Assembly: GCA_030650605.1 (NCBI GenBank) | Contig: JAUSDP010000100.1 | Coordinates: 16,383-80,382, forward strand | DNA: 64,000 bases | Reading direction: 5' to 3' | DNA from: a bacterium | GTDB taxonomy: Bacteria > Patescibacteriota > Minisyncoccia > Phycocordibacterales > Zambryskibacteraceae | Translations under genes and position numbers: made by a program | The notes under the pieces: model-generated | What the model saw: only the letters and a program-made list of their open reading frames with translations | The model's database searches: none | What the model was told of the DNA's origin: nothing | Shown: piece by piece, positions 1-45,088 of the stretch | Layout of the letters: the number at the start of each line of letters is the position of its first letter | Position numbering within the stretch: position 1 is the first letter of the stretch

Positions 1-33
1 GATATAAATTAAGCTTTAAAAGAAAGTAATTTT

Positions 34-4019: not shown

Positions 4020-6917
4020 ATGCCAGGAATTACAACTAGAATGCAGATTGGTCGCCTTCACGAAATGAAGGGACTCCCTATAAGAACACGCAATCAGGTA
4101 AGAGCCATCCTCGCAGTCGACAGCGACGTATCATTGAAACTCCTAAATCAACTTCGGGTCGAGAAGTCGGCAGGAGAACTACTTCAAATAGAACGAGTTT
4201 TACGCTACGATTTTTTGAAAACCATCCCAATGGTCCCAGATCTCTTCCCTGAATTCCCACAGACGGGTGAAGAATATGATCGACTGGCTAAAATAGATAT
4301 TGCCAAAGAGATTGAAATACTCGATCTTTTGACGTTGCGATGGCATGAGAAACTTGTTTTGCTCCTTGCGGCTATGCGGCGCCTTGACTCGGCAATTACG
4401 ATGAGAAACTTCAACGAAGGTTCTGTTCTTGTTGGCCAGATATATGCTGAATTTGGTTACAGTCATTTTCTTATTCGTAAAGCAGCTTTACTTTATACCC
4501 ATGCTGCAGGAATTACGGCAATACCTGAAGTTGACTCGATTCTGAGCGAGGCAGGACTCGATAACAAAAATATCGCAATGTCCTCGCTTATCCATTGCTT
4601 TAAAGAGGAGCAGGACTTTCTCAGTTTGAAGCGCTCGATAATGAATTTGCCCCAAAGAGGTATTGCTAATAAATTTACGAGGGATGTGTGTCGACTCCCG
4701 TTTCATCCGTTCGCGAAGGATGCCGCTGACTTTGGTGAACTTCTACAAAGTTGGCGCCAATCGTCGCTTATCGATGCAATTATTGGTGCCAAGGTGAACG
4801 TCCATTTAGTGGAGGCTGAAAATGGACGTTCAGTAAATCTGCGGGCATTGTTCGCTCATATAGATTCAAACGCATTGTCCATCGATCGCATCTTATCTAT
4901 CTACGATCTGGAGGATCCGGATAGCGAGACAACATTCTACAAGCAATCGAGTGCTTGGCTAGAAAATGCATGCATAGTTAAGTATCGCACGCTCGTCGAC
5001 CATTTTTACAATTTTCCGGAGTCTGACTATTTTGAATTTAATCAGGAATTGATCGCAAGAATTGCCAATTGGGCTGCCCCAATTGACTTGGCGGTACTCG
5101 CTACCACTTCTAAACTTTCTCACACTGATTCTGCGAGCATGATGGCCCTTGAGAGCCTTGGAACAGTGACGCGATCAGCGATGTTTAACTTCTCAGTATT
5201 TAATGTCGAAGGGTATGCAAAAATCAGTGAGACAGAATTGTTATCATTGATGGGTAGCACTAGAGATTTGGCGAAAACAATTAACCACAAATTTCTAAGT
5301 AATATGGCAAAAATGTCAACGTCGAAGTTGTCGCGTCTGATACTCTATTTTTTAATTGCAAAAAAGAGCAAAAACGAACTCGATGATCACCAGCTAAGGC
5401 GAATTTTCCAGGGGATTGTCCTAACAGAACACAATGGAAGCATAGTAGAACTGTTTGATGCTTTAAGTAAGATGTCACGAGTTGTAGCTGAGTATGCGTA
5501 TGAGATTTGCACAGAGGACTTCATCGCAAAATTATTTCATATCATAAAAACATCTTCCGAAATCACTGAAACGCGAGCTAGTCTACATAAGTGGATGGGG
5601 AAACTTACTGGGGAAAAGGCGTACCTAGACCGTGCCAGGACTCTTTTGATCGACCACCAACTAAACAAAATTCGTAACGAGATCGATGACAACCGCATCT
5701 ATGTGGACGCAGCCCGATTTGCAGAGTGGATGAACGATGAGGTAGGGCGCGACTTGAACGGCATCTTGACAAGTATTGAACACAAAAGCGCATTACTAGA
5801 AGCTGCGGATCCTCAGCTCATGGCTATTGTGGAGCGATGCTATGTCAACTTTTGTTCAAATAAGATTTTTGGCATCGCTTCATATTTGGGGCGACGTATC
5901 CGTCATGGAACGTTCAAGGGGCACTTGTTTTCGAACGTTGTTTCCATCGAGAGAAAGAAGGAATATGAATATCTTCTTTCAGATCCAGTAGTCGCCTCGA
6001 AGTGGGTACGTTGGAAAGCCGATTACGAGAAGATTATCGATGAGATAATCGTTAGTCGCCTGCATATCGAATCGCCAGGCAAGCGCGAGGGGCTATTAAA
6101 ACCTAGCGTTAATACTGCATTGAAGCTAGAAACGCTTTCAGCGTGTGCGAGAAACATCGCCCGAGACTTTTCTGAATCAAATAGCTCGTTTGGTGCGATC
6201 CCCATCATCACCGAATATTGCTGGCGTTTGGCTGAACATGATTTGAAGGATATCAACGGGTATTTGAAGAGTAAAAAGGCGGCGTTGATAAACACTGACC
6301 TTTTAACAGATTTGAAATCGTGTGTTTACGGTTCAAACTTGGGTGTCGCTCGTGATTTTTGTCGGGAACTTGTTCGCCTTATTGACGACAAGTTATTGTC
6401 AATGTACAACTGGTTCAAAAAACCTGCGAACGTTTCGCCGCAAGCGTCATTATCACTACTATATAAAGCAGTCGTAGCAGAGGTGCGCGAGGCATTTCCC
6501 GAATTTGACACGAGCACTGATTTTGACGATGCCAGAGATATTAAACTAGTTGGTGGTGCGTACCATGTTCTGTACGACTCATTCTATGTCATTGTTTATA
6601 ACGCAGCGAAGCATGGCAAGGCAGGCGAGGAACTTGAGCGGAATTTCGAGCTCATTGATGATACCGTTGAGCGGCGAAAAATGCTGAACATTAATGTCAC
6701 GTCGCTGATTAAGGACAACGAAAGCGAGGACTATGTTAGGAGTAGACTCGTCTTGGATAGGACACAAGATCTTGATGATGCTCAGGTCTCAGAGGATCGG
6801 AGTGGAATCCGAAAATTGTATTTCCTGGAGCATTGGAATCGAGATTTTTGTATCGGTGATATTTATTGTCGAAATCGTAAAGTAACTGTGAACCTAACCC
6901 ATGCTTTGGAACACTGA
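4020..6917 (+). CDS. dtcA: Detocs DtcA-like sensor histidine-kinase-like protein, 965 aa
   Basis: Large N-terminal region without known domain. C-terminus carries a histidine-kinase ATPase N-box-like motif (VIVYNAAKHGKAGEE). Stop overlaps the start of the next gene (TGATG). The gene order matches the Detocs three-gene architecture. Confidence 0.55.
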   Translation: MPGITTRMQIGRLHEMKGLPIRTRNQVRAILAVDSDVSLKLLNQLRVEKSAGELLQIERVLRYDFLKTIPMVPDLFPEFPQTGEEYDRLAKIDIAKEIEILDLLTLRWHEKLVLLLAAMRRLDSAITMRNFNEGSVLVGQIYAEFGYSHFLIRKAALLYTHAAGITAIPEVDSILSEAGLDNKNIAMSSLIHCFKEEQDFLSLKRSIMNLPQRGIANKFTRDVCRLPFHPFAKDAADFGELLQSWRQSSLIDAIIGAKVNVHLVEAENGRSVNLRALFAHIDSNALSIDRILSIYDLEDPDSETTFYKQSSAWLENACIVKYRTLVDHFYNFPESDYFEFNQELIARIANWAAPIDLAVLATTSKLSHTDSASMMALESLGTVTRSAMFNFSVFNVEGYAKISETELLSLMGSTRDLAKTINHKFLSNMAKMSTSKLSRLILYFLIAKKSKNELDDHQLRRIFQGIVLTEHNGSIVELFDALSKMSRVVAEYAYEICTEDFIAKLFHIIKTSSEITETRASLHKWMGKLTGEKAYLDRARTLLIDHQLNKIRNEIDDNRIYVDAARFAEWMNDEVGRDLNGILTSIEHKSALLEAADPQLMAIVERCYVNFCSNKIFGIASYLGRRIRHGTFKGHLFSNVVSIERKKEYEYLLSDPVVASKWVRWKADYEKIIDEIIVSRLHIESPGKREGLLKPSVNTALKLETLSACARNIARDFSESNSSFGAIPIITEYCWRLAEHDLKDINGYLKSKKAALINTDLLTDLKSCVYGSNLGVARDFCRELVRLIDDKLLSMYNWFKKPANVSPQASLSLLYKAVVAEVREAFPEFDTSTDFDDARDIKLVGGAYHVLYDSFYVIVYNAAKHGKAGEELERNFELIDDTVERRKMLNINVTSLIKDNESEDYVRSRLVLDRTQDLDDAQVSEDRSGIRKLYFLEHWNRDFCIGDIYCRNRKVTVNLTHALEH

Positions 6918-8592: not shown

Positions 8593-9012
8593 TTAACTTG
8601 CTAAAATTTTTCTCAGTTTAAGCTCTATGATTTCGTCAAGGCCTGAATTTGACTGACATAGCAATAAGTGTGGACATCCATCAGGAAACTCGGCATGTGC
8701 ATCATCAATAGCAAGCCAGGGTCCACCATAATGATTTAGAGTTATCCAGGCTAAAATTTCTTCATAGCGCGAATATGGTGGTTTACCGTCACCATTGGGC
8801 GTCATGCCAAGGATTCTATCCTGAATATCTTCCGAAAATAGTCCCCAAATAACTTCAGAAGGATAGGCCTCGCGCCAGGATGAGGAAATTACGACCATCA
8901 GAGAGGGAAATTCTCGAAGAATATTTTCAAACCTCGTTAAATGATAAAAATGGCCACGTTCTCCAGCTGGCGATGAATGCAAGACACCATCAAAATCCAG
9001 AAAGATGATCAT
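8593..9012 (-). CDS. Small HAD-superfamily hydrolase, paralog of 3268..3714, coupled to the hipA-like gene
   Basis: MIIFLDFDGVLH (HAD motif I) and VISSSWRE. The start overlaps the HipA-like stop by 4 nt. Confidence 0.55.
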   Translation of the reverse strand: MIIFLDFDGVLHSSPAGERGHFYHLTRFENILREFPSLMVVISSSWREAYPSEVIWGLFSEDIQDRILGMTPNGDGKPPYSRYEEILAWITLNHYGGPWLAIDDAHAEFPDGCPHLLLCQSNSGLDEIIELKLRKILAS

Positions 9013-10352
9013 CGCCGCAATTCCTTAAGCTGATTTATTTGATTCTGAATTGCATAATACCGGGCTCCAATAATATCGCTATCAACTCCTTGTTCCGCCA
9101 TCACATCCGATAGCCCTTCAATTTTGGACCCAAAAATTCGTAATGCATCGGTCACAGTCGCAAGCTCATCTGGATCCAGTTCCAATGACGCCAGCACGTC
9201 AGCCCAGTTGGTAATCTCTGTTTTGCCACGTTTCCATCTCAGTGCCCGGGCAATGCCTTCTTTATCTAGATTCATCGGGGCGAAATCAAATAATGGTGTC
9301 AGCTGCACCCGACCATTCACAATCTGGACAGCAGTATTTCTTGCATGGTTATCTGTGTTGCCCATGGCCAGATTGAGCACATCACGCTTTATGAACTCAA
9401 TGGTAGCAGCAGTTTTATCGGTGACATGCAAACGTATTGCCGCCAATAGATCATTTTGTGACGGTCTCTGATCAAAGCCAATCTGGCCAACCAACGAGGC
9501 GCCACTTTCTTGATGGCGCCGTTCTATGCCTGATTCCGTCACCAACCTATCGAAGCGCGGGATAAATAGCATATCCGCATGCCATTCGGGAAGCTCATCA
9601 ACAGCGAGCCCCAGAGCTTTCGTTGTACGCATAAATGCAGCTTCATTTTTGAGGATTTTCAAATCAGATGGGTCCCGTCCGCGCGAAAGCTTAACTAGAT
9701 AATGCTTCTTTGCGTGGGCATCAGGAATGGCACCATCAAGATAAAACAAATCATCTTTACCTAGCGTCAGCATGAATTTTGGTGCCACGCCTTGCAGGCC
9801 TGTGGTGCCGGCAGTGAGCATATTGTGACCAAAGATATTTTCAAGAAATTCATCCTTGCGCTCCAGGATGTCTTGAAGCTTGAATCCACGTTTTGTCAAC
9901 TCATCTTGACGCTCTGGATGGACCTCATAAAAACGTGCGGACTCTCTTACTCGTAACCTGCCTATTGGATTGATTGCGCCGGCACAAAGGAGCTGCCAGT
10001 CTGCTGAGGGGCCATCTTGCAGGTTGAGTTCGCCCAGGAGATATTTGCGTCCTTTGCCCTGCGGAATGAGATCAAATAGAAAAGATGGCCAGCGGTCTAA
10101 ATGTGTGGAATTCCTACTGACTGGAATGCGAAGAGATGCCGGAGAATTCTTGTAGTTGTGCACAAATTCAGAATCATAAGTTATCCGTGATGCACCGGTA
10201 CCGCCCAAGGCCGGTTTATCGATTTCGATAGTGCAGCATTCCCTCCACTGGCCATCAATATGAATTTCGAATTCGCATGTGTTCATAAACGTAGATTCAT
10301 GAATTTTGAGTTCGTGGATCAACGGAGCAGCCAACCAAAAATTAGTGTCCAT
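9009..10352 (-). CDS. hipA: HipA-family serine/threonine kinase toxin-like protein, 447 aa
   Basis: C-terminal HipA catalytic-loop signature GNTDNHARNTAV (GNxDxHxxN). The overall length and N-terminal region are consistent with full-length HipA. Confidence 0.7.
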   Translation of the reverse strand: MDTNFWLAAPLIHELKIHESTFMNTCEFEIHIDGQWRECCTIEIDKPALGGTGASRITYDSEFVHNYKNSPASLRIPVSRNSTHLDRWPSFLFDLIPQGKGRKYLLGELNLQDGPSADWQLLCAGAINPIGRLRVRESARFYEVHPERQDELTKRGFKLQDILERKDEFLENIFGHNMLTAGTTGLQGVAPKFMLTLGKDDLFYLDGAIPDAHAKKHYLVKLSRGRDPSDLKILKNEAAFMRTTKALGLAVDELPEWHADMLFIPRFDRLVTESGIERRHQESGASLVGQIGFDQRPSQNDLLAAIRLHVTDKTAATIEFIKRDVLNLAMGNTDNHARNTAVQIVNGRVQLTPLFDFAPMNLDKEGIARALRWKRGKTEITNWADVLASLELDPDELATVTDALRIFGSKIEGLSDVMAEQGVDSDIIGARYYAIQNQINQLKELRR

Positions 10353-10382
10353 TCAAATCTTCGATACACCATGAACCACATT

Positions 10383-10730
10383 TTATGTTTTGTAAGTTGC
10401 ATTGATTCCGTTGGCAGAGAGTACCAATAATATCTCAGACACATCTTTTCCCTGATCGGTATTAGGTACACTTTTCCCAAATTGTATTTTGGGATCTTGG
10501 TTTGCTTCAAGAATTACCGTGCGATTTCTCTCTGAAGTTAAATGAAGAACCAATGGGTCAGAATTTGGATCGTTGGCTTGTCTATCAACCAAATACTTTA
10601 AAGCAGAATGTACTGTTGAAATTTCAGACGTTTTCCATAATTTGATGAACACCTGTGTTTTATTGAGGCCCCTGTTCGAATCAGACAAATATTCGTATAG
10701 AGGGACATCTGGCGCCGTCGTTTTATCCAT
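10383..10730 (-). CDS. Hypothetical protein upstream of hipA-like gene (sits where HipB would be, but has no obvious HTH)
   Basis: 115-aa ORF 30 bp upstream of the HipA-like gene. No XRE-type helix-turn-helix detected. Confidence 0.35.
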   Translation of the reverse strand: MDKTTAPDVPLYEYLSDSNRGLNKTQVFIKLWKTSEISTVHSALKYLVDRQANDPNSDPLVLHLTSERNRTVILEANQDPKIQFGKSVPNTDQGKDVSEILLVLSANGINATYKT

Positions 10731-14800: not shown

Positions 14801-15603
14801 TGTGGATCCAAGCCTCCATCGCCCTTTTCGTTTGGCCTGGATACAGTGTGCATGCACTGCACCCACATCATATTGTCGCCTTTGACCATCCATACATCTT
14901 TTTTGGGATCCACCAATTTAAGTACAGGAACATCAACTCCTGCTTCCTGGCATGCTTTGATTTCAGTGCCTGTCATTCTGTACTCAAGCAAGTATTTCTC
15001 TGTGAATTCAGCTATAGCGGTATCGCCGGCAAGGTGGCCTTTCAAGAAGTTTTCATCGTCAAACACGAGACCTTGCACTGACAAAGACTTTGAATTCGCC
15101 CAATTTCCTTCGAAGCCAATCGTAGAATTTCGTGTTTTTTTAGCGTTTTCTTTGAACGCATTGAGGTCCTTTTTTTGTGCATCTGTGAACGATTTTAGTG
15201 CTTTCTTTTGCTGGCTTTTGAACTCAGTTTTATCGATATTGGAGAGATTTTGATTTCGCAAAAAGCGATCTTTTGTTTTCTCTTGGGCGTTCACAAACTC
15301 TGCTTTTGCTAACTTATGTATGAGCTTCTGTTTCGCCAGGTCTTCATTGGGGCCTCTTTTATAGTCGCGCCTGGTAACTTGCAGCTCCGGTGAATCACCG
15401 AATTTTCCATCGAGAATTTCTGAAAAACGCTCTTCTGAATACTTTGCAAAGCGATCTCCTCCAAGTTTTTCAAGCATTTTTCCTTTAAATTGGTTGGCAT
15501 AATCAGCATGATCTCCTTCCCGATATTTCTGTTGATAGTTATCTGATTTCCTATAACTAGCTATTTGACTCGAGTTGCCAGCAAGTGCATTTTCTGTGTA
15601 CAT
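11881..15603 (-). CDS. traI: MOBF-family conjugative relaxase-helicase (TrwC/TraI-like), 1240 aa
   Basis: N-terminal Tyr-rich relaxase motif I (SYRKSDNYQQKYREGDHADYANQFKGK...LG, matching the TrwC YY...WxG pattern). 3-His motif III (LDPQIHSHSTRATH). Internal Walker A (VVLGRAGTGKST) of the TraI/RecD-like helicase domain. A K-rich insertion separates motif I from motif III. Confidence 0.85.
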   Translation of the reverse strand: MYTENALAGNSSQIASYRKSDNYQQKYREGDHADYANQFKGKMLEKLGGDRFAKYSEERFSEILDGKFGDSPELQVTRRDYKRGPNEDLAKQKLIHKLAKAEFVNAQEKTKDRFLRNQNLSNIDKTEFKSQQKKALKSFTDAQKKDLNAFKENAKKTRNSTIGFEGNWANSKSLSVQGLVFDDENFLKGHLAGDTAIAEFTEKYLLEYRMTGTEIKACQEAGVDVPVLKLVDPKKDVWMVKGDNMMWVQCMHTVSRPNEKGDGGLDPQIHSHSTRATHTVDCAGSLRAIAFGKVYENQHLLDAIGKTAERLFLEDKGYVFYDTKDGYELSGFSRNDIEVFADGSSLRIPEWISSQNKLREDPSHPKHGIYLDINSKHDRDTANAASRGGKDSFDFSAFDDPINDAATGLAAAQAWWKYKAENPLNKELHPVFIEDLRKRVELAQEYGRAHRLEKRTPELAYQMASQGLTERISTIRSKEALLTQMLKEGLYQLEPEILQQKIEEKILSGELIMQNDGRSLTTRELVECEQKIERLVKENFARFKPVCDRALFDAIVLQYEAEKGFKLSKGQKEATYMALTTTSGISVVLGRAGTGKSTSMDLLQRCAEASRVRVFGQAPSGKAKEALADSVYLREKTNGSGMDTYFPHVITTQKAALSEKWWEENIQKGSIVIIDEAGLVDARSMLELLEKANEHQCRIILSGDYDQYHSVGAGAPLKHVSDFIRGNPSENAFKELTEMQRGKDQETIKIHSLCFKSPAEGLVYMSEKNRIVVRNTEDECLKEMATYYNELTEAARDNTFCITKTNEDRRLLNIAIREKIGIEKTRGLEINSFERFGNLTTQDLRNPAQYESGSTVFFNMNSPHSPFQKGEACEVLRVEGSIVKLARTITDKNGLNPKTVEYDYSPMTQSAGVSLGVEERIKICPGERIRFTAANEKLGILNGDRGIVENIDFEKRIATVKIVSTSKIIKVPLPDQGRGLSIRWGYSATGHSSQGGTASTKIFSNPDGTKEDPTISNRAQVLMYVPRKDRGDYNSIYTNSTRSVMGPRSVVLFTDARNVEDVEKTFLEVGVKLVHDRAIEPTKEELAKRLNDEKPILLKSAFVNGNDAWNSKTRCEYIRPEKDLITGQFSKPPSLLEQLKSARETIGPEIGLMGSPKFKKQVIELIVENNLDIRITNEKGGLQALQDTLWATKNNKEALKEFAINLAEPEVEKTKIKEIEVVKIEPVREREKEKYYGREM

Positions 15604-15655
15604 ATATATTATCCTAATTATTTTATAGCTTAAAAGCAGTAAAAAATTGACGTGA

Positions 15656-16048
15656 TTACTCTGCGTATCCGGATTCCAAAAGCAATTTTTCCAGCCGACC
15701 TACTGTGCCTTCTATTGAATTCAGACGATTTGCGAGAAGCCTTAATGTCCGATTGACCTCTCCAGTCGAGAGTTCATTAGCAACCACGATTAGCTTATCT
15801 TGCAGCTCCAATCTACTTTGTTGATTCAAATAGTCGTCTAGCATTAATGATAAAACTCGTGATGAGGCGATCCCACGAACCTCTGCTAACTGTTCAATTC
15901 TTTGCTGTTGTGGGCCCGATAATCGAACTGAAACCACCTTGCTTTCGGCGGCTCCAGTGCCTGAATTTGATCGCGTTTTCGATCTCGATACGGGCTGGGT
16001 TGGAATGGTTTCGTTTTTGGCTTGGTTTTGAGTATTCATTTTAGTCAT
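15656..16048 (-). CDS. Relaxosome accessory protein (MobC/TraJ-like ribbon-helix-helix)
   Basis: 130-aa basic protein directly upstream of the relaxase. VSVRLSGPQQQRIEQLAEVRG is RHH-like. The position is typical of nicking accessory proteins. Confidence 0.5.
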   Translation of the reverse strand: MTKMNTQNQAKNETIPTQPVSRSKTRSNSGTGAAESKVVSVRLSGPQQQRIEQLAEVRGIASSRVLSLMLDDYLNQQSRLELQDKLIVVANELSTGEVNRTLRLLANRLNSIEGTVGRLEKLLLESGYAE

Positions 16049-16189
16049 CTAAAATATTTGTTATATTTACTAAGTATTCGATTTTATTGCAATCATTCAT
16101 GTTTACAATATATTTTTTATGATTACATAGTAGTCTTTACGTTTCCGAATTGCAAGTCGCCCTACAATTCTTTTGAATTTTGGGATGCC

Positions 16190-16540
16190 TTTGACACACC
16201 GATTCCCCTATGAGGGGAAGGCATCGCGAAGCGATGCAGGTGTGTTTTACTTTAGGAGAAATTACGTAGTAATTTTGAACGGTTCTAATTATGCTCTTGA
16301 CGTTATGTTTTCATGATGATTCTCTCTATGAGAATCATCATTTTTGTGTGCTTTTGAATTCCTTTGATATGAGGTTGCTTTTGATTTTTATGGAGACTTG
16401 AATATTTTGAGAGGGTGTTACTGAAGGTGTCAGGCTAGGTGTTATCTAAGGAGTTATTGGGGTGTCATTCGGGAGTTACTCAGGTGTCATCGAGGGGTTA
16501 GCTGGGTGTTATTAGTGGTGTCACAGGGGTGTTACTCCGA
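16190..16540. promoter_or_regulatory. Candidate origin of transfer (oriT): nested palindromes plus about 11 helically phased GGTGTYA repeats
   Basis: At 16194..16245 there are two adjacent perfect hairpins (ttcccctatgaggggaa and gcatcgcgaagcgatgc) enclosed by acacacc/ggtgtgt arms. At 16413..16537 there are about 11 direct repeats of GGTGTTA/GGTGTCA/GGAGTTA with 11-12-bp periodicity. The region lies between the RHH accessory gene and the divergent + strand operon. Confidence 0.5.
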
Positions 16541-16603
16541 ATCCACACAAAATATTTCTTGCATAAACTCTTTAAACGGATACACTATAACCATTAATAT
16601 TTA

Positions 16604-16879
16604 GTGACACAAAAAAAGCACTTTATGAATCCAGAATCAAATCCAATTTCGATCGACGACTTCCTCGAGAAACTGAAAACTCGTGGCCAACGTCGTCGCC
16701 AATACAAATTGGATCCTCTGATCAAAGAAGTGGATTCGATTTTGAAAGCCGGCCATGGCGCCCTGGATGTTCATGAGTTCGCATTGGAGAGTGGTCTCGC
16801 AATAAGCAAAAGCACAGCATACAAATATGTTGCCAAAAGAAAACAAGTGACGTCGCCGAAAAAGGGATCGCCAAAATGA
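16604..16879 (+). CDS. Small basic hypothetical protein, 91 aa (possible DNA-binding)
   Basis: ORF divergent from the relaxase operon and next to the candidate oriT. Lys/Arg-rich. Confidence 0.35.
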   Translation: MTQKKHFMNPESNPISIDDFLEKLKTRGQRRRQYKLDPLIKEVDSILKAGHGALDVHEFALESGLAISKSTAYKYVAKRKQVTSPKKGSPK

Positions 16880-17406
16880 CGCCAAAAACAATTCATGAAA
16901 TCTTGCTTGATCGGCAGCGCCGAAATAAAGAAGCCAATACTAAGAAATCAAAGTTTTGGCCACATGCAAAAGAAATTTTAATGATTCTGAATGGAGATCC
17001 TGAAAGTGGTTTGCCACCAGGCTTATGGTCTGACGTATTGCAATATTTACAAGGACGTCTTATTGATCCTGGGACCGGAACTCTTGAAGAAGTATCCACT
17101 GCAAAGCATCGCAGCTTACTTTTAAAATTCGTACGGACTCATATCAAAGCACTCGACGAAAAATTTGGAACAACGGATGCTCAAAAAGCAAATCGGGTTG
17201 TTGACTTAAAAATGCCGGCATCCAAAAAAATAAGCAGCCTGGTACCAGAATCAAAGTCCACAAGAAGTTCCGGTACCGGAATTGCAGTTCCCAATATTTT
17301 AGTTACCGAAAATGAAAAGTCCAAAAATTCAAACCCAACACGCGAGGAAACCCTGGCAATAATTAATAGTGAGCGAGACCGAAGAAAAAAGGAATTGGGA
17401 TTTTAA
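16876..17406 (+). CDS. Hypothetical protein, 176 aa
   Basis: 4-nt overlap with the upstream ORF. No domain recognised. Confidence 0.35.
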   Translation: MTPKTIHEILLDRQRRNKEANTKKSKFWPHAKEILMILNGDPESGLPPGLWSDVLQYLQGRLIDPGTGTLEEVSTAKHRSLLLKFVRTHIKALDEKFGTTDAQKANRVVDLKMPASKKISSLVPESKSTRSSGTGIAVPNILVTENEKSKNSNPTREETLAIINSERDRRKKELGF

Positions 17407-17494: not shown

Positions 17495-18385
17495 ATGAGC
17501 AAGAAAAATACGGTAGCAAATGAAGCAATTGAAACAATTGAAATGAACGCAGTTTTGCGTAAGCCTGTTTTACGTGTCCTGGTCACATCTGGATCCGATA
17601 CTCGTCAAACCAAGACATCCACTGCGACACACGGCATCAAGCCCTTCCTCGAGAATTATTATGACGAAGTCGATCTCTGGGGTGTTGAGCTCGAAGCTCA
17701 CGCACGCGGCGTAGAGAGTCGTCTTTACTTGCCCTCCGACATCGAAATGTTAGCAAAAGATCTTACCTACGCTCGCCCAACTGTGCCTGGTGGTCGCCGA
17801 GCCCTGATAGTTGATTTGGGTGGCGATCTTTTCCGCGACTTGATGTCCGAAATGGAGGCGATTGATGGCGGCGGATTAAAATTCGATGTTGTCATATATC
17901 CGATCACGACGACAGCTGACGTACGTAAATTCGAGACCATGTTGCTCTCTCTAATAGATGCCGGCATTGAACTGTCCACAGTTCACGTGGTTTTCAATTT
18001 AATCAAAAAAGATGATGCTAAAAGTGGTTTCCAAGGAATTACAAAAAAATTCCAGGCTCTAGGAAACATTGCAGCGCTAGGACGCAAAATGGGCGTGAAC
18101 GTCTCAGAAGCTTTTATTCAAGAAAACGGTTTGCAAAGTCAGCTTACACAACTCGAGATGGAAGCCGATGAAAGTGGATCTCTGCAACTTAAGTATCCCG
18201 AACTTTCGTCAATGCATCGACTAGCGAATTCTGAGATCGATTATGAAGCGCTGGCAAATAAGGCTTTGGACGAAGACGACACAGAAACTTTTGATCGCAT
18301 GTCCAAAATGGCATATTGGAAAAAGACTGCGATCATCGCGTCTAAGCAGTACGCGCTCGCAATGCAAAAAGTCTTCGAGGGTTGA
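17495..18385 (+). CDS. Hypothetical protein, about 296 aa
   Basis: The ATG at 17495 is in frame with the longer ORF from 17483. It is the first gene of a translationally coupled series (the stop overlaps the next start). Confidence 0.4.
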   Translation: MSKKNTVANEAIETIEMNAVLRKPVLRVLVTSGSDTRQTKTSTATHGIKPFLENYYDEVDLWGVELEAHARGVESRLYLPSDIEMLAKDLTYARPTVPGGRRALIVDLGGDLFRDLMSEMEAIDGGGLKFDVVIYPITTTADVRKFETMLLSLIDAGIELSTVHVVFNLIKKDDAKSGFQGITKKFQALGNIAALGRKMGVNVSEAFIQENGLQSQLTQLEMEADESGSLQLKYPELSSMHRLANSEIDYEALANKALDEDDTETFDRMSKMAYWKKTAIIASKQYALAMQKVFEG

Positions 18386-27644: not shown

Positions 27645-28850
27645 TTATCTGGATGAACTGTTTTTTTCTAATTTCGCTGTTTTGGGATCATAAATAAATT
27701 CAGTAATCGATCCATCCCGAATCCGATGCACAGCCTCATCGATTACACTCAACGGCACCAGGAACCACTCTCTCGGTTTCACAGGATTCCCAAATCGGTC
27801 ATCAATAGTTAAATCAAGTTGGGCGCCGGCGAAGATCCGATGAAATAAGTTTTCCAAACTGATGCGGTTCAAATTGTGAAGCTTATACGTGGCCACTACG
27901 TCGACATCAGCCAACAAATAAGTGGCATCCTTCGATGCGTTTGCAATCCTGGTCTCAACCTTCCCTCCGGTCACTCCTATTTTATGGATCAGCTCGCGAT
28001 GTTCAGTAACAAATGGATGCGTTGATTTACTCTGGAGTACATAGATGGTCCCAGTCGCAATGTCTGCCGGCTCGGCAACACTACCAAACAGTGGTCCGTC
28101 ATCCTTGCGAATGAGGCGCCGTCCAACAGGCGTGTCACCATCTGGATACAGGGATCTGGAAAGAGATCTCAATAACAAGTTACCTTCAGTCCCGTTATCA
28201 AAAATAACCCGCAGCCGAGGGTTATCGCGCCCATCCTTGGTCTTATTGGCGTCGTTCATTTCGGCGACGTAAGATGTCTGGCCACTGACAATATAGAAAT
28301 CTCCCACATTGATACTGGCATCCTTAGCGAATGGCTTCGTCATCCAGGTGCCGGCTTTGAGTCCAGATATGGCTTCATCGAACAAATGTTTGAAATTATC
28401 GAAATCCGCGCACGGAGTTCGATTTGCGACTTCTTCAGCGGCCTGAATTTCAACACTGGAGCGAACATGGCGCAAAACTCGGATGTCATTTTCATCCGTG
28501 AGCTCAGTGCTAATCCCGAGCTCAGCAAGTAATGCGTCCTCGTCTAAGCTATCGACATCAACTGCATTTGCTACGACACCAGAAAGCAGCCCGGGTCCAT
28601 CCATAGCGCCCAGCAGAGATTGAGCTTCTGGTAACTTACGAATTTGATCGAGCCGAACAGCATAAATGCGCTCGAAAATATCACCGCTCTCTCCATGCAA
28701 TGGGGCTCGGCCGTGTGCCTGATGGAATCGCAGAATATCTTCGAAGCCAGCAATAATGCGTTCTTCGCGCGCAGTTCGACTTGATACCTTAATCGGAGTG
28801 GCATCAATGCCAAGCGCATCTAGAAGTTCATCATCATTCATTTCAGCCAT
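27645..28850 (-). CDS. T5orf172 / GIY-YIG-like (MUG113-type) domain protein, third gene of the MTase-helicase operon, about 401 aa
   Basis: C-terminal GIY-YIG/T5orf172 signature (GTIYVLQS ... HKIGVTGG ... REWFLV). The chosen ATG at 28850 overlaps the helicase stop (ATGGCTGA). The longer ORF from 29015 would run 170 bp into the helicase gene. Confidence 0.6.
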   Translation of the reverse strand: MAEMNDDELLDALGIDATPIKVSSRTAREERIIAGFEDILRFHQAHGRAPLHGESGDIFERIYAVRLDQIRKLPEAQSLLGAMDGPGLLSGVVANAVDVDSLDEDALLAELGISTELTDENDIRVLRHVRSSVEIQAAEEVANRTPCADFDNFKHLFDEAISGLKAGTWMTKPFAKDASINVGDFYIVSGQTSYVAEMNDANKTKDGRDNPRLRVIFDNGTEGNLLLRSLSRSLYPDGDTPVGRRLIRKDDGPLFGSVAEPADIATGTIYVLQSKSTHPFVTEHRELIHKIGVTGGKVETRIANASKDATYLLADVDVVATYKLHNLNRISLENLFHRIFAGAQLDLTIDDRFGNPVKPREWFLVPLSVIDEAVHRIRDGSITEFIYDPKTAKLEKNSSSR

Positions 28851-30954
28851 TGCTTGAATCCTTTTGCGATTGAGCTGCTTTAGCTTGGGAATATCTGGTA
28901 AAAGCAGCGACGCCTTCGGCCATACGTTTTTCCCAGGCATCCGACGAATTGATATCCGGCAGGCGGCCTCGTTCATTTTTAAACTGAACCGCTCGCCTCG
29001 CAAGGTCGCGAGCATCTTCTTCAGAAATATTTACTCTCTTAGCAGCAATTGTCGCTTGGACTTGTCTTAAAGATTTTTCGTCCATCGCCTTCGCTAAAAC
29101 AGCGTAGGCGGCATCGAAAGGGTTAATGCGATCGATCAGATCGATATCAAGATCACGAACATTAATGAATTTACGGACCCCATCAAGAAACGCTGAGTTA
29201 CCTGGTGGCGTGCCATCATTAGCATCAACTTTAGCCAACTCCAGCTTCGCTTGCTGGGTTACATTCATCGCCGCGATGGCATGTTGACGGATTGATTCCT
29301 GATCAGTATCACTTAAATCTGGGTAACGCTCCCGCACGATCTTACCCATATGGAGTTGAGTGAGTTCTTCTGGTAACGTGTTTTCTTTATCAAAGAGACC
29401 GCGCTCCAAAACTGTTTTCTCTTGTAAAAAACTGGTCACAACTTCGTTTAGGTCTTCCTTGCAGATACGTGTAGCCTCGGGGCTTTGAGGTTTTACCAGC
29501 CCATTGATCTCCACGTGGATCTGACCGGTTTCTTTGTTGACGCCAACGTTTTTACCGTCTTCCTTGTAGCCATCGTCACCGTAATCAAAACCTTCCTTCG
29601 GTCCTGCATTTTTAGGCGTGAACTCATACCGTGGTGCCAAAACTTGTTCCATCAGAAGACTGGCAGAGATTGCCTTGAGCATGTCATTCACGGCTTCAGC
29701 GACAAGTGATTGCTCGGCTGCCGGTTCTGCAATCAAGTTTGTGAAACGGGAACGCTCTTTACCCTCAGCATCACGAGTCGCACGACCAATAATCTGAACG
29801 ATTTCAGTTAAGCTGCTTCTGTAACCTACTGTCAAAGCGTGCTCACACCAAATCCAATCGAAGCCTTCTTTTGCCATGCCGAGGGCAATAATGACATCCA
29901 CGAAATCGCGGTTATTTTTTTGTTTAGGATCTTTTAACGCCGTGAGTACATTCGATCGCTTAGCTTGATCGCTGTCATCTACCAGATCGGCTACTTTCAA
30001 TATGCGGCCATCTTTAGTTTGGACCAGATGAAAACCTGTAATAGGGTCGACACCTTTCCAGTCTCCCATTCCGTGCATGATGTCATTCACTTCGCGCTGC
30101 TTGTCTTTGAGGCTTTCACGCGCATTCACGTTAGGAATGTGAACGATAGTTTTCAAAGAGGGATCTAAAACTTTGTGGATTGCATCAACATAAGGACCGG
30201 TGTAGAAAAAATAACCGATGTCCAGTGATTTGAGCCATTGATACCCATTGAGCTGCTCGTAATACGTGTATGTGATCGTTTCGAATTTGGACTCATCTGT
30301 TGGTGACATCACCGCTTCACTGTCACCACGGAAGTAGGAGCCCGTCATAGCAACCAAGTGCGCCTTATCTCGGGCGATGAGAGCACCTAATTGAGCGCCC
30401 AACTTATTGTCGGGGTTGCTGGAAACATGGTGAAATTCATCAATAGCAACCAGGCGGTCATCAAACGCTTGAATGCCTAGCTCTTCCACCGCGAACCTGA
30501 ATGTGGCATGAGTACAAACGAGAACCTTATCGGCTCCTTCCAAAAACTGTTTTACCGCGTCCACTTTTGACTTAGCCACACGTGGCTCATCGACGCCTGG
30601 TGCGTTGCACAGGTTCCATTGTGGTTCGACTTTCCAATCCCAATAGAACCCAAACTTACTCAAAGGTTCATCGGCAAAGCTGCTTCCAATGGAGCGCTCT
30701 GGTACCACGACGATTGCTTGTTTGAGACCTTGATTATTGATTTTATCGAGCGCGATGAACATGAGGGCTCGGGATTTACCAGATGCCGGAGGTGACTTGA
30801 TCAGCAGATATTGTTCACCACGTTTGGCATAAGCGCGCTCTTGCATGGTACGCATCCCCAGCTCGTTTGCTTTGCTGGATGCGCCGGTGCACGCAGTCGC
30901 AATCGATACTGATGGAACCGTGTATTTATTCGTCGGATTGCTCGATTGATCCAT
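28843..30954 (-). CDS. SF2 DEAD/DEAH-box helicase (restriction Res/HsdR-like motor without a recognisable nuclease domain), 703 aa
   Basis: Motif I KSPPASGKS, motif II VAIDEFHH and motif VI QIIGRATRD. The start codon overlaps the MTase stop (TAATG). Confidence 0.75.
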   Translation of the reverse strand: MDQSSNPTNKYTVPSVSIATACTGASSKANELGMRTMQERAYAKRGEQYLLIKSPPASGKSRALMFIALDKINNQGLKQAIVVVPERSIGSSFADEPLSKFGFYWDWKVEPQWNLCNAPGVDEPRVAKSKVDAVKQFLEGADKVLVCTHATFRFAVEELGIQAFDDRLVAIDEFHHVSSNPDNKLGAQLGALIARDKAHLVAMTGSYFRGDSEAVMSPTDESKFETITYTYYEQLNGYQWLKSLDIGYFFYTGPYVDAIHKVLDPSLKTIVHIPNVNARESLKDKQREVNDIMHGMGDWKGVDPITGFHLVQTKDGRILKVADLVDDSDQAKRSNVLTALKDPKQKNNRDFVDVIIALGMAKEGFDWIWCEHALTVGYRSSLTEIVQIIGRATRDAEGKERSRFTNLIAEPAAEQSLVAEAVNDMLKAISASLLMEQVLAPRYEFTPKNAGPKEGFDYGDDGYKEDGKNVGVNKETGQIHVEINGLVKPQSPEATRICKEDLNEVVTSFLQEKTVLERGLFDKENTLPEELTQLHMGKIVRERYPDLSDTDQESIRQHAIAAMNVTQQAKLELAKVDANDGTPPGNSAFLDGVRKFINVRDLDIDLIDRINPFDAAYAVLAKAMDEKSLRQVQATIAAKRVNISEEDARDLARRAVQFKNERGRLPDINSSDAWEKRMAEGVAAFTRYSQAKAAQSQKDSSNG

Positions 30955-33734
30955 TATGCTTTCTTCCCTTTTTTTGTAATTTTGGCGCCAACAGCTGTCA
31001 TCTTTGTGTATAGATCAAATAGTTTTTCTAATCGTTCTGTATCGTTCTTGAAGCGCCGTCCAATATAGATCCGCTCTATAACTTCGTCGTTTCGTTCATG
31101 GGCAAGACGCAGGTTTTCAGGCATCTTATCCGGATCGTACAAGTCGGCGATGGTAGATGGAAAATGTGTCTCGCGTGCCAATAAAATGTTTTCGGCGCTT
31201 GCGGTCAGGTCTGCCTTGTTCTGTTCAGTGAGAAGAGGGATGGGGAAGGTGTTCCAGCCAAGTTCGTTTGAGTAGCGAAAATCAGTCTTCAGCTGCCCAC
31301 AAATAGTTGCAATCCACGATAAATGCAGCTTTGAAACTAGAATCGCAAGTTGCCAAAGCGGGGCATCAAAAATCGCAAACGCCTCACTAGAAACTGTGCT
31401 ATCTGTTGCTATCAAACCAGCGGGTAAGTAACGGCGAGACTCTGAAGATGTTCTTGGCATCACTACCGTGTGGACGCTGGCACCACGCATTTCTCTCAAT
31501 TGATGTGCCCGCGCAGCCATTGCTCTTCCACCTGAATCGGTACTATTCAAGCGCATTTCTTTTACCGCATTCACACGAAGTCTAATGCCAGGTATTAGCA
31601 TCGCTTCTGGAAAATTTTCGTCTTCAATCCAAAGACAGTATCTACTTAATCCGTTTGTGAACTCCTTCGACCCGTAAATCCTTCGAATAAAGCTCTGACG
31701 CTGTGCTTTAGTCAGATTTAACTCGATGAGTTCATCACGGGAAAGTAGCAGGCTGCCACCGTCATACGGCATGTTGCCCAAGTCCATATTTGACAAACCG
31801 TTTATAGGTTTTGAACTCTTTTCAATGAGTACGTTTGCCCCCCCAACAAGATAGGCATTTATGAATGAAACATCCTTTGCCAGTAACTCACCTTCGTCTG
31901 TTATCGAGTAGATCTTTCGGGCAGTCCGTGCCTCTCTCGAAAGTCCGATGATTGCGACTATCACGCCAGCATTGTGGGCGGCTAAATTTTTCCACTTAAA
32001 GGACGTGTGTGCAAAGCTGATCTCATACTGATCTCCAAAAATCTGCGGCCAAATCAATGGAACTTGATGACCTCTGGAAATAGAATTTGTTGAAACAAAA
32101 GCACATGATGCGTTGGTGCTTTTACCGTAGTCAACAGCTTTAATAAACCAACATCCGACATAGTCGATATAGCCATGCTTGACACCACGTGGGCCAAAAA
32201 TATTTTCCATGTCGGAGATCTGCTGCGCTGATTTCTTACCTTTGCCCGCATATGGTGGATTGCCGCAAATGTACGTTTCCCCCCCTTCGTTCTCGAAGTC
32301 AATTTCTACCTGATTCAGCGGAGTACCAAACAAATCATCTGCCACCAGCTTCACGCCTGTTCCCGTGGGCGGGCAAATACTTAGCCAATCCAAACGAAGG
32401 GCGTTACCGCAAACAATCCAGTTTTGCGCATCGAGCGGAAGAAACTCTGCCAAGGCATCCTGTTGACCTCGATAAAGTACGTCACACTGAAACTCTGCAA
32501 TGATGAGCGCCAGGCGTGCTATCTCCGCAGGAAAGTCACATAGCTCAATTCCTCTATAGTTCGTTAGTGGAATTTCACTGCCTTGATGTTGTTCACCGCG
32601 CCGCCGATTAATTTCACCTTCGATCTCACGCATCTGCTTATAGGCGATAACTAGGAAGTTCCCGGATCCACACGCCGGATCGAAAACACGAATCCGCGCA
32701 ATACGTTTCCGCAGATTCAAAAGCTTCCGATCGTTTTCCCCGGCCTCGTCCAACTGCGCCCGCAGGTCATCAAGGAATAGAGGATTCAACACCTTCAAAA
32801 TATTGGGCACACTGGTGTAGTGCATTCCAAGAGAACCACGCATTTCCTCATTGGAAACAGCCTGGATCATGCTTCCGAATATATCCGGATTGATCTCTTT
32901 CCAATTCAATCCACCGGTATGCAGCAGGTAGGTACGCGCCATACGAGTGAATCGTGGAACATCTGTACTGCCAGAGAAGAGACCACCATTCACATAAGGA
33001 AATCCGGCAATCCAAGTAGCCAAACGAGGTTTGGCTCCAGCACGTTCGGCAACCTTAATATTCATGGATCTGAAAATTTCGGATACCACTTCATGAGTGT
33101 TCAAACCATCGCGGTCACTAATTTGCTCGACAGTTTTCGTAAAGAGGCCGTTACCTTCGAAGATATTAGTATCCTCAGCAAAAAAACAGAACACAAGGCG
33201 CGCCATAAAGTGATTCATGTCTTGGCGGCGCTCTTCTTTTGCCCACTCTGGATTCTCACGCAAGAGCTCGACATACAGCTTGTTCAGGCGCCCAGTCGCA
33301 CGTACGTCAACTGGATTGTCTTTGATCTCTTTGATCGTCGAGATGCCAGCCAGTGGCAGGAAGAAACCAAAATGGTTTGGGAAATCTTGATAAGCGCACG
33401 CGATTGTCTCGCCACCATTTAAATCTTCGGATTCCAGACTCTGACCATCGGTGGCCAAAATGAATTTGGCTTTAGCTTTTGTTGTTGTCGAGCTGGCGCG
33501 CAGCGCTTTAAGGGTTTCGCCCACACTACCGGCATCACAAACTGCGATATGGATATTATTCCGTTGGAGTACGCCGCCAGAAACATCGGAAGCGTTGTTA
33601 TTTCCCGATCGCAGACGCTGAAGTGTTGTGTCCTTATTTCCAAAGGCGGCAAGAAAGTGATACGGGAACTCAGTAGCATCAAAGGGTTGGAGCGCTAAAT
33701 TCGAAACGGCTTCTTCTATTTCTACAGCGTTCAT
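30954..33734 (-). CDS. Gamma-class N6-adenine DNA methyltransferase with a long C-terminal target-recognition region (MmeI/PglX/type IIG-like architecture), 926 aa
   Basis: AdoMet motif I VFDPACGSGNFLV and catalytic motif IV CGNPPYAG. Roughly 300 aa N-terminal to the MTase core and roughly 350 aa C-terminal to it. Confidence 0.8.
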   Translation of the reverse strand: MNAVEIEEAVSNLALQPFDATEFPYHFLAAFGNKDTTLQRLRSGNNNASDVSGGVLQRNNIHIAVCDAGSVGETLKALRASSTTTKAKAKFILATDGQSLESEDLNGGETIACAYQDFPNHFGFFLPLAGISTIKEIKDNPVDVRATGRLNKLYVELLRENPEWAKEERRQDMNHFMARLVFCFFAEDTNIFEGNGLFTKTVEQISDRDGLNTHEVVSEIFRSMNIKVAERAGAKPRLATWIAGFPYVNGGLFSGSTDVPRFTRMARTYLLHTGGLNWKEINPDIFGSMIQAVSNEEMRGSLGMHYTSVPNILKVLNPLFLDDLRAQLDEAGENDRKLLNLRKRIARIRVFDPACGSGNFLVIAYKQMREIEGEINRRRGEQHQGSEIPLTNYRGIELCDFPAEIARLALIIAEFQCDVLYRGQQDALAEFLPLDAQNWIVCGNALRLDWLSICPPTGTGVKLVADDLFGTPLNQVEIDFENEGGETYICGNPPYAGKGKKSAQQISDMENIFGPRGVKHGYIDYVGCWFIKAVDYGKSTNASCAFVSTNSISRGHQVPLIWPQIFGDQYEISFAHTSFKWKNLAAHNAGVIVAIIGLSREARTARKIYSITDEGELLAKDVSFINAYLVGGANVLIEKSSKPINGLSNMDLGNMPYDGGSLLLSRDELIELNLTKAQRQSFIRRIYGSKEFTNGLSRYCLWIEDENFPEAMLIPGIRLRVNAVKEMRLNSTDSGGRAMAARAHQLREMRGASVHTVVMPRTSSESRRYLPAGLIATDSTVSSEAFAIFDAPLWQLAILVSKLHLSWIATICGQLKTDFRYSNELGWNTFPIPLLTEQNKADLTASAENILLARETHFPSTIADLYDPDKMPENLRLAHERNDEVIERIYIGRRFKNDTERLEKLFDLYTKMTAVGAKITKKGKKA

Positions 33735-44281: not shown

Positions 44282-45088
44282 CTATTCAATCTCCAAGACT
44301 TCAATTAAGCAAGCCCACTGAAATCCCGGATTCTCAAATTTAAGTTCTTTCGTCGATGCAGCATTGTTACGATTTCTGGCATATCCGAGGGGGTTCGCTA
44401 CAACCCGGCATCCATTTACGACATAATCAAAACTATCGTGCACATGCCCGTGCAGCCATAGGCTTGTTTTCCCTAATAGCTCTTCGAGATTCCCGCTAAC
44501 GAATGCGGCATTCAACGGTTCCCCGATATAGCGCGGGTGGACCGACGATGGGTGAGGTCCGTGATGGGTTACGACAACTGTCTTGCCGTCGTAAGGGGTA
44601 TTCAATTGGTTTAGCAGCCATGCTCGTGACTTATTATGTTCTCCTAGCGCGTGGGCTGGCATAAACACACCTCCGCGTGTTTTTATAATGCGATGGTCAT
44701 TTAGGCTTAGTTCTGCCACTTCCATTAACTGTCGTTGCGTCCTATTACATGGCAGTAGGTAGTCAGTCCACATCGTGCAGCCTAAGAACCTAACGCCGCC
44801 GAAATCCACTACAGAGTTATCCATAAATCGAACAGATGTGCCCTCAGCAGCGCGGTGGAGATCTTCGCGTAGCTTTTCGAACGAATACCCATAGAATTCA
44901 TGGTTGCCAGCTAAATACAGCACAGGCACCGGCCAGTCGTGGAACAACTCTATCGCCTCGGTGCCATTCGATATATCTCCAGCGAGCACGAGTGCGTCTG
45001 CGCCAGCTGCCGGCGAAATTAGCCGTGTTCCAGGAGAATCCCTCTGAAAAAACTCGAGATGTAAATCGGATGCAAGTTGAATTTTCAT
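44282..45088 (-). CDS. Calcineurin-like metallophosphoesterase, 268 aa (paralog 1 of 4)
   Basis: The five MPP motifs in order: SDLHLE, LAGDISNG, LAGNHEFYG, VVTHHGP and HGHVHDS. Confidence 0.7.
   Translation of the reverse strand: MKIQLASDLHLEFFQRDSPGTRLISPAAGADALVLAGDISNGTEAIELFHDWPVPVLYLAGNHEFYGYSFEKLREDLHRAAEGTSVRFMDNSVVDFGGVRFLGCTMWTDYLLPCNRTQRQLMEVAELSLNDHRIIKTRGGVFMPAHALGEHNKSRAWLLNQLNTPYDGKTVVVTHHGPHPSSVHPRYIGEPLNAAFVSGNLEELLGKTSLWLHGHVHDSFDYVVNGCRVVANPLGYARNRNNAASTKELKFENPGFQWACLIEVLEIE

Follow-up and report, generated by a model that had tools for sequence, protein, structure and literature searches.

What function should be given to a 555-bp gap between two divergent operons, where two adjacent hairpins are followed by eleven short direct repeats? 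The question arises in a stretch of 64,000 nucleotides from a bacterium of the Zambryskibacteraceae (Patescibacteriota), namely positions 16,383 to 80,382 of contig JAUSDP010000100.1 (GenBank assembly GCA_030650605.1), referred to below as the window. On one side of the gap lies the gene of a ribbon-helix-helix (RHH) accessory protein (15656-16048, - strand) together with that of a MOBF relaxase; on the other side, an operon starting at 16625 on the + strand encodes two StbA-like proteins and a StbB-like ATPase. A first-pass annotation, made from the sequence letters alone, had considered the region as a candidate origin of transfer (oriT), with the repeats as a platform for an accessory protein. 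The reading favoured here, and regarded as probable, is that the gap unites a transfer origin with a partition/regulation region, after the type carried by the resistance plasmids R388 and R46 (IncW/IncN); oriT proper would occupy about 16190-16350, and the repeat array is better explained, by analogy, as a centromere/operator similar to stbS than as a relaxosome platform for the RHH protein. R388 (L005) and R46 (L014) have the same order of elements as the window, i.e. relaxase and accessory genes on the - strand, then on the + strand an inverted repeat with nic, an array of 11-bp period, stbA and stbB. The sequence features, conservation, synteny and protein homologies reported below are direct observations.

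The predicted nic site and the hairpins around it

The relaxase gene had been correctly identified in the first-pass annotation, the product being of the MOBF (TrwC/TraI) type by its Pfam domains (Table 1); besides, the residues Y17/Y23/Y27 and the triad H252...DPQIH270SH272 are invariant among three full-length relatives. A distant-mode blastn of positions 15600-16900 against the PLSDB plasmids gave no match and genome-contig scans with the relaxase and its alignment found nothing; a metagenome scan returned one short locus (L004), and two further loci (L001 and L002) have full-length relaxase relatives 46-47% identical to that of the window in the alignment (43% by BLASTP). With the 84-aa protein encoded first in the divergent operon, a word-indexed protein search found the protein itself only and an exhaustive phmmer search found six distant relatives, on contigs L006, L007/L008, L009/L010, L011 and L012/L013. 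In L006 and L007, as in the window, a long gap separates the relaxase gene and a small RHH gene, both on one strand, from the operon on the other. In L004, a 69-aa open reading frame (ORF) that duplicates the N-terminus of the relaxase (656-865, + strand) lies between the RHH and relaxase genes.

Across the window and five related metagenomic loci (6/6), a hairpin with a GAA loop, hereafter hairpin 2, is directly followed by an RGRTGTGT octamer, and this arrangement is kept with five different stem sequences. Hairpin 2 is GCATCGC-GAA-GCGATGC in the window, GCATTCC-GAA-GGAATGC in L001 and L002, GCATGGCGC-GAA-GCGGCATGC in L007, GCATCC-GAA-GGATGC in L006 and GCCTAC-GAA-GTAGGC in L004, while the octamer is AGGTGTGT in the window and L002, GGATGTGT in L001 and L004, and GGGTGTGT in L006 and L007. 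In the alignments, divergence among the loci begins immediately 3' of this octamer; just beyond, each relative has a small hairpin of its own, different in sequence and located at the same place as that of the window. In R388, the nick falls 8 nt after the inverted repeat IR2, and the essential elements have been assigned to the IR2 proximal arm and to the nucleotides separating IR2 from the cut (PMC4176350). The R388 sequence, read on the strand going from trwA to stbA, is GCGCACC-GAAA-GGTGCGT followed by ATTGTCT/ATAGC, in the same orientation as in the window, and R46 presents AGGTGT/ATAGC at the homologous place, where AGGTGT is identical in the window and the gene order is the same. By analogy, nic would lie on the + strand at 16243-16246, i.e. 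after T16245 if the R388 spacing is applied or after T16243 if the GGTGT/ motif of R46 and F is followed. The region is very probably the oriT of the MOBF relaxase, as first proposed. Hairpin 2 followed by GGTGTGT is the best candidate for the nic site: its anatomy, strand and position match R388 and R46, and it is kept, with changed stems, in five related loci. A second nic on the - strand, consisting of hairpin 1' (hairpin 1 read on that strand) and GGTGTGT, was considered and rejected, the arrangement being lost in L004 and L006; it is also disfavoured by the proximal arm of hairpin 1, which is without the ATGC/AGGC ending common to all copies of hairpin 2.

The two adjacent perfect hairpins and their ACACACC/GGTGTGT bracket, already pointed out from the letters, were recovered by the inverted-repeat finder at 16194-16245. 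When positions 16185-16255 are folded as single-stranded DNA (ssDNA), exactly this three-way junction is obtained at -20.2 kcal/mol, against a mean of -6.4 for dinucleotide shuffles (z -7.1), none of 200 shuffles being as stable; for the three loci folded (L007 excluded), the z-scores range from -5.1 to -7.1. The junction is present in four of the six loci (window, L002, L001 and L007), where changes are matched on both arms with 0-1 mismatch per helix: the outer stem reads ACACACC/GGTGTGT, ACATCC/GGATGT (L001) or ACACACCC/GGGTGTGT (L007), and the stem of hairpin 1 TTCCCCT/AGGGGAA, TTCGCC/GGCGAA, TTCCCC/GGGGAA or TTTCC/GGAAA. As MAFFT put the hairpin arms out of register, these pairs were counted by script on locus-checked sequences. 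Such matched changes in an inverted DNA repeat fit intrastrand pairing and dyad-symmetric protein binding alike. In L004 and L006, the outer stem is absent and hairpin 1 is degenerate, and these are also the two loci with a differing RHH beta-strand, namely S[SV][IL]P[VL][RK] vs. KV[VF]S[VI]R.

Regarding the RHH protein itself, the label given on first reading is reasonable: a profile of six orthologues matches the RHH structures of CopG and RelB (E 0.004-0.04) over the N-terminal part, and the family aligns weakly with the RHH of TrwA (hhalign E 9e-4, probability 22%); the window protein has no match in Pfam and no similarity to TrwA by BLASTP. Its beta-strand reads KVVSVRLS, and the long N-terminal tail differs among loci. 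The best guess for its binding sites, on sequence grounds, is hairpin 1 and the perfect inverted repeat at 16313-16341, which may be a second site; the CTATGAG core of the latter is common to the loop of hairpin 1 and to the second inverted repeat of L001. More generally, CC(C)TATGAG recurs in palindromic surroundings both 5' and 3' of the predicted nic (16206-16216, 16324-16334 and 16368-16374) as well as in relatives, e.g. at about 4812-4798 on the - strand of L001, and is a candidate RHH binding motif.

A phased array upstream of stb-like genes

Between the inverted repeats and the operon, exactly 11 GGNGTYA heptamers follow each other on the + strand, starting at 16414, 16426, 16438, 16450, 16461, 16472, 16483, 16494, 16505, 16517 and 16528, i.e. 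with spacings of 12, 12, 12, 11, 11, 11, 11, 11, 12 and 11 bp and a mean of 11.4 bp, which bears out the earlier count of about 11 direct repeats at 11-12 bp. Elsewhere in the window, the motif has 42 matches scattered on both strands, for an expectation of about 0.04 per 121-nt strand segment, so that 11 units in the array are far above chance (Poisson about 1e-23). The window holds no second cluster and no other pair at 10-13 bp, the sole other close pair being marginal, 21 bp apart at 54200/54221. The units had been placed on one face of the helix, and they are indeed roughly phased; yet the spacing implies a drift of 309 degrees end to end at 10.5 bp per turn, which makes the claim approximate only, the sites describing a shallow superhelix of about one turn and not a single face. 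Neither is the array unusually regular for its class, as R46 is stricter with exactly 11 bp. The resemblance of the repeat unit, through GGTGT, to the nic sequence is probably coincidental, since the relatives keep the nic octamer while their array units differ. That the array serves as a platform for cooperative protein binding is plausible.

The related loci have arrays of their own, with 14 units of CYGAYGC at 10-12 bp in L001, about 11 units of CAGAYGC at about 11-13 bp in L002, about 10 units of GGGCGCAA in L006, about 17 units of (T)AGGCAS in L007 and about 16 units of ACTAAG in L011, in pairs 9 and 13 bp apart. Four of these arrays (L001, L002, L006 and L007) are located between the nic region and the StbA-like gene that opens the divergent operon. 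The L011 sequence covers the gene-proximal part alone, and there the array precedes the StbA-like gene. Wherever the intergenic region is available, a locus carries 10 or more direct repeats, spaced by about 11-12 bp, and the unit is specific to each locus, as expected for a centromere that co-evolves with its binding protein. Within the array of the window, TTA and TCA units tend to alternate and TRF detects a weak 22-bp period, which, together with the paired units of L011, fits one dimer per two units.

Downstream of the array, a TTGnnn-16..18-TAnAnT promoter stands 42-57 nt upstream of the start codon of the StbA-like gene in six of six loci, and the gap between array and promoter is 25-65 nt. 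In the window, the 3' end of the array sits 25 nt upstream of the -35 hexamer, without overlap of the -35 and -10 hexamers, and the array forms a single uninterrupted block upstream of the promoter instead of two sets flanking or overlapping it.

The first product of the operon, which consists of a DNA-binding domain only, is related to StbA of R388 by BLASTP (E 1e-4 over StbA 23-79) and, as a family profile, by hhalign (probability 86%, E 5.2e-6); its AF2 model has four helices (pLDDT 79.5). Its recognition helix varies chiefly at the first residue (K, M, M, S, I, L). The second product, the long form, is a paralogue of the first by profile-profile comparison of the two families (probability 96%, E 2.3e-9 over 81 columns), its direct match to StbA being insignificant; its single-sequence AF2 model is poor (pLDDT 51.8), and both its putative recognition helix, more so than that of the short form, and its C-terminal tail differ among loci. 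With 176 aa and a variable tail, it resembles the two-domain organisation of StbA proteins (135-175 aa). The third product matches the NCBIfam model NF041292 of StbB (Table 1) and StbB of R388 by BLASTP (E 5e-5), and its orthologues in L001, L002, L006 and L009 match the model nearly full length (E 8e-19 to 2e-9). Pfam gives nothing for any product of the operon, and PDB sequence searches with single proteins gave no matches.

Three side observations concern these families. The long family finds its best PDB sequence match in a copper repressor of the CsoR type (3aai, E 7e-4), which is not a helix-turn-helix (HTH) protein and is unreconciled with the 96% match to the short family. In L002, the gene of the short StbA-like protein (5950-6240, - strand) carries a frameshift and is fused in frame to the second gene, through real decay or an assembly error. 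P0014, the most divergent protein of the short family, is encoded beside a NikA-like RHH gene, with a strong StbB (E 2.4e-54) directly downstream, a context which shows that this family accompanies StbB beside transfer origins belonging to more than one MOB type; in L012/L013 (4347-6140), a distant StbA-like protein and a strong StbB come with a NikA-like RHH protein and an LPD7-domain protein in a different relaxase context, the intergenic region having a few GGTTTGGGT repeats and no long array.

Table 1. Coordinates of the features in and around the gap, and of the two replication genes of the window
Feature	Position	Strand	Basis or remark
MOBF (TrwC/TraI-type) relaxase-helicase, 1240 aa	11881..15603	-	Pfam TrwC 3e-10, AAA_30 5.5e-32, TraI_hel_assoc_N 3e-6
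RHH accessory protein, 130 aa	15656..16048	-	trwA position; six-orthologue profile
Candidate promoter of the RHH-relaxase operon, TTGTAA-16-TAAAAT	16081..16108	-	consensus scan only
Three-way junction, outer stem ACACACC/GGTGTGT around hairpins 1 and 2	16194..16245	+	ACACACC 16194-16200 pairs with GGTGTGT 16239-16245
Hairpin 1, 17-bp palindrome TTCCCCTATGAGGGGAA	16203..16219	+	TTCCCCT 16203-16209 pairs with AGGGGAA 16213-16219; candidate RHH site
Hairpin 2, GCATCGC-GAA-GCGATGC	16221..16237	+	GCATCGC 16221-16227 pairs with GCGATGC 16231-16237; equivalent of R388 IR2 (relaxase recognition hairpin)
Conserved octamer AGGTGTGT	16238..16245	+	RGRTGTGT directly 3' of hairpin 2; predicted nic 16243-16246
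Small inverted repeat AAATTAC-gta-GTAATTT	16259..16275	+	just 3' of predicted nic; inverted-repeat finder
Conserved block TTATGCTCTTGAC, consensus TTTGCTCTTGA	16289..16301	+	all five aligned loci, 45-60 nt 3' of the octamer
Perfect 12-bp inverted repeat ATGATGATTCTC-tctat-GAGAATCATCAT, centre CTATGAG	16313..16341	+	inverted-repeat finder; terminator-like in scan
Direct-repeat array, 11 GGNGTYA heptamers	16414..16534	+	pattern scan; proposed stbS-like centromere/operator
Operon promoter TTGCAT-16 nt-TACACT	16559..16586	+	found by conservation; overlooked by consensus scan
StbA-like HTH protein, short form, 84 aa, DNA-binding domain only	16625..16879	+	BLASTP, hhalign, PDB profile search
Second StbA-like paralogue, long form, 176 aa, helical N-terminal domain and variable tail	16876..17406	+	profile-profile comparison with short family
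StbB-family ParA-like ATPase homologue	17495..18385	+	NCBIfam NF041292 StbB, E 1.8e-10, 40.7 bits
Second Rep3 gene	40886-42094	+	beside ParA/ParB, 38379-40441
Rep3 gene	59661-60680	-	3.8 copies of a 22-bp iteron directly upstream, 60762-60844

Proposed mechanism and rival explanations

The nick position, the binding partners and all functional consequences of the proposed mechanism are carried over from R388. The MOBF relaxase would recognise hairpin 2 together with the octamer and nick the + strand at about 16243-16246, so that, with transfer running 5' to 3' rightwards, the recipient would receive the array and divergent operon first. The RHH protein would sit on the CTATGAG-centred palindromes, i.e. 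hairpin 1 and 16313-16341, both as an accessory factor of the relaxosome and as an autorepressor. Over the array, one or both of the StbA-like HTH proteins would bind cooperatively, probably as one dimer per two units, and coat it into a gently superhelical filament, which would position the plasmid for segregation, autoregulate the operon from a position immediately 5' of its promoter and restrain conjugation by holding the plasmid away from the transfer apparatus until released by the StbB-like ATPase; the array would thus modulate conjugation without being required for transfer. The reading of the array is attributed to the StbA-like pair as such, rather than to one chosen member, because the recognition helix of the short form is near-constant and that of the long one more variable.

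Some observations weigh against this reading. Concerning transfer, no type IV coupling protein (T4CP), VirB4 or other domain of a type IV secretion system (T4SS) was detected in the scanned ORFs of the window, and the relaxase operon, in the segment 11015-16048, consists of the RHH and relaxase genes only, whereas those of R388, R46 and F include a T4CP gene; the plasmid may be only mobilisable, or it may have transfer genes that escape recognition or that lie outside the window, and a missing coupling-protein gene is not disqualifying for an oriT. Concerning the StbA-like proteins, the link is moderate: the best PDB sequence match of the short-family profile is the DNA-binding domain of StbA (7pc1) at E 0.02, the same structure comes top with Foldseek at a non-significant level (E 2.2, TM 0.42-0.47), members of the short family also weakly match transposase HTH models, and neither the short protein nor other window proteins have detectable similarity to StbA of R46 (NCBIfam StbA_2). 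As sole reader of the array, the short protein is further questioned by its recognition helix, near-constant (xSTxYKYxAKR) despite very different array units. The StbB-like protein scores 40.7 bits for a curated NCBIfam cutoff of 200, all its orthologues being below the cutoff too, which makes them distant relatives of StbB, and its residues at about 36-47 read SGSDTRQTKTS vs. xGK[ST] in the relatives, the Walker-A glycine being replaced by Thr, a substitution that may alter its ATPase activity. With regard to the array, simple promoter occlusion is not obvious from one block 25 nt upstream of the -35 hexamer, and, whereas R388 carries extra copies of its stbDR repeats at other promoters, no additional group of GGNGTYA units was found at other promoters of the 64-kb window (about 17 kb of the contig lies outside it). 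Finally, the separate ParA/ParB genes (38379-40441) make a second partition device not obviously needed.

The closest competitor in function would be an array acting solely as a transcriptional control element of the divergent operon, bound by an HTH protein and with neither a centromere role nor an effect on conjugation. The short distance to a promoter conserved in six loci and the ParA/ParB genes already present speak in its favour, as does R388, where StbA also represses; in that plasmid, however, operators with a regulatory role only have 2-5 repeats and the centromere alone has 10 (bioRxiv 10.1101/2022.04.29.490116), so that 10-17 tandem sites are far above normal regulatory need. Moreover, a StbB-type ATPase is co-transcribed in every locus and the array leaves the -35 and -10 hexamers free, and regulation as the only role is judged unlikely. 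A still less likely explanation, distinctly doubtful, keeps the array within oriT proper, as a phased platform along which the RHH protein would polymerise and bend the DNA to load the relaxase, and which would be needed for efficient mobilisation. It draws on the array being 170-290 nt from the predicted nic, on the RHH accessory proteins that bind repeated sites in many oriTs and on the RHH ParR proteins that coat arrays of 10-11-bp repeats (bioRxiv 10.1101/2022.04.29.490116), and the variable N-terminal tail of the RHH protein could add specificity. The predicted DNA-facing strand KV[VF]S[VI]R is nevertheless of an identical type in the window, L001, L002 and L007, facing four different units (GGTGTYA, CYGAYGC, CAGAYGC and TAGGCAS), which makes the RHH protein an unlikely reader of the array, contrary to what had first been suggested; the palindromic CC(C)TATGAG motif near nic suits such conserved reading residues better, and the equivalent array of R388 is bound by StbA and dispensable for conjugation.

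As for the hairpins, they might be RNA elements, i.e. terminators or a small RNA whose rightward transcription would start from promoter-like sites (16087-16131), instead of oriT structures acting at the DNA level. A scan does call hairpin 2 and 16313-16341 terminator-like, with three promoter-like sites on the + strand upstream, but Rfam gives no match (best E 0.44), what follows hairpin 2 is the conserved RGRTGTGT and not a conserved T-run, there being none in L001, L002 and L007, and the position and strand fit the relaxase sites of R388 and R46; an RNA function is very improbable. Replication iterons, to which direct repeats with a weak 22-bp super-period bear some resemblance, are hardly credible at all as an identity for the array: no rep gene is adjacent, the two Rep3 genes being 24 and 43 kb distant and one of them having 22-bp iterons of its own, and in every related locus the array accompanies the relaxase and stb-like genes, not rep. 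A parC of the type II ParMRC kind was rejected too, no actin-like domain being found among the operon products in Pfam and NCBIfam scans and the only RHH gene belonging to the relaxase operon in all loci. Weighed together, these points leave the combined transfer-origin and stbS-like region as the preferred reading.

Within it, two proposed features would go beyond R388 and R46, for which neither has been described. The nic octamer, locked by its upstream complement in the conserved junction, could form a structural switch for nicking and re-ligation by the relaxase, and the alternating TTA and TCA units could be read by a heterodimer of the two StbA paralogues. Taken jointly, these two proposals are speculative and rather unlikely; if true, the switch would be opened, for instance, by the RHH protein, or would form only on the transferred strand.

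The plasmid and comparison with known systems

The window is plasmid-like, as it holds two Rep3 initiators, ParA/ParB, an integrase, an MmeI-type restriction-modification enzyme and HipA. Away from the gap, a defence-like segment (27645-33734, - strand) comprises the MmeI-type fusion of 926 aa, a DEAD/ResIII helicase of 703 aa and a T5orf172/MUG113 protein of 456 aa. The HipA-family kinase toxin and a small upstream ORF of 115 aa (9009-10730, - strand), which has no Pfam match and may be the antitoxin, are followed by a HAD_SAK_2 domain protein (8593-9012). Five calcineurin-like phosphoesterase genes occur at 44282-45088 and 53115-57382 (- strand), four of them in one cluster.

The relevance of such a region lies in the Stb system linking plasmid segregation to conjugation: StbA achieves partition without an ATPase encoded by the plasmid, and StbB frees plasmids for transfer. 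To our knowledge, work on this system has so far been essentially confined to the IncW and IncN plasmids of enterobacteria, and the module of oriT, array, stbA and stbB would now be seen in a very distant, uncultured plasmid lineage (the window and five relatives). Within this lineage, the repeat units have fully diverged while the nic site stayed fixed, and StbA would be split or duplicated into a domain-only and a long form, providing a comparative set for the residues that read the repeats and for the role of the C-terminal tail. In addition, a nic site is predicted for an unstudied MOBF subfamily, with an example of nic within a branched DNA structure. For annotation, the lesson would be that phased arrays of about 11 bp beside MOBF oriTs point to stbS-like centromeres rather than to relaxosome platforms or iterons.

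Among known systems, F and the window share a MOBF relaxase with a helicase domain and G/T-rich sequence 5' of the nick. The nic sequence of F is GGGTGT/GGTGC, and L006 and L007, with GGGTGT-G, are identical to it over seven bases. F has TraM, TraY and IHF accessory sites and no stb-type array, and its leading-region genes point towards oriT, whereas the operon of the window points away from it, as in R388. RP4 (IncP) differs by a MOBP relaxase and another nic type; its TraK, treated as a StbA homologue, binds between nic and its own gene, with the StbB-like traL adjacent (Guynet et al., PMC3098194). The centromeres of type II and III partition systems, i.e. parC of R1, pB171 and pSK41 and tubC of pBtoxis, are arrays of 10-12-bp repeats that a small DNA-binding protein coats cooperatively, giving a superhelical filament (bioRxiv 10.1101/2022.04.29.490116). 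Like the array of the window, they are direct repeats upstream of an operon, and the 11.4-bp spacing would give a similar slow superhelical drift; these systems use the cytomotive proteins ParM or TubZ and, with ParR, an RHH protein, whereas the window has a StbB-type Walker ATPase, HTH proteins and an adjacent oriT.

The likeness is closer with R46/pKM101 (IncN), where 13 direct repeats of (A/T)TACAWCA, with a 7-nt core and a 4-nt spacer, lie between the accessory gene and stbA. They are arranged in two sets around a TTGACA promoter and reach the ribosome-binding site of stbA, and a T4CP gene is present. With R388, the window shares a MOBF relaxase operon that begins with an RHH gene, and an array at the same position. 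That of R388 comprises two sets of five ATGATGCAR units (as read on this strand) with a period of exactly 11 bp, and the units of L001 and L002 share GATGC with its stbDR (ATGATGCAA) in the same orientation. In R388, the N-terminal HTH of StbA binds the stbDRs, one dimer per two repeats having been proposed; stbS is needed for segregation, stability and regulation and not for conjugation, and StbB counteracts StbA (PMC3098194; bioRxiv 10.1101/2022.04.29.490116). Its stbABC operon enters the recipient first (PMC3098194). The differences are as follows: repeats of 9 bp plus 2 in two sets of five flanking the promoter in R388 vs. 7 conserved bp plus 4-5 in one block; a single two-domain StbA of 141 aa vs. 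two paralogues of 84 and 176 aa; a coupling protein, trwB, between trwA and trwC vs. an operon without it; TGTCT/A vs. GGTGTGT before the nick; and, unlike in R388, a nic octamer that can pair with an upstream complement. Protein identities between R388 and the window are at the detection limit. Taken as a whole, the region belongs to a known module, of which it is a distant variant, and does not constitute an element of a new kind; it has two small puzzles of its own, the junction and the pair of StbA paralogues.

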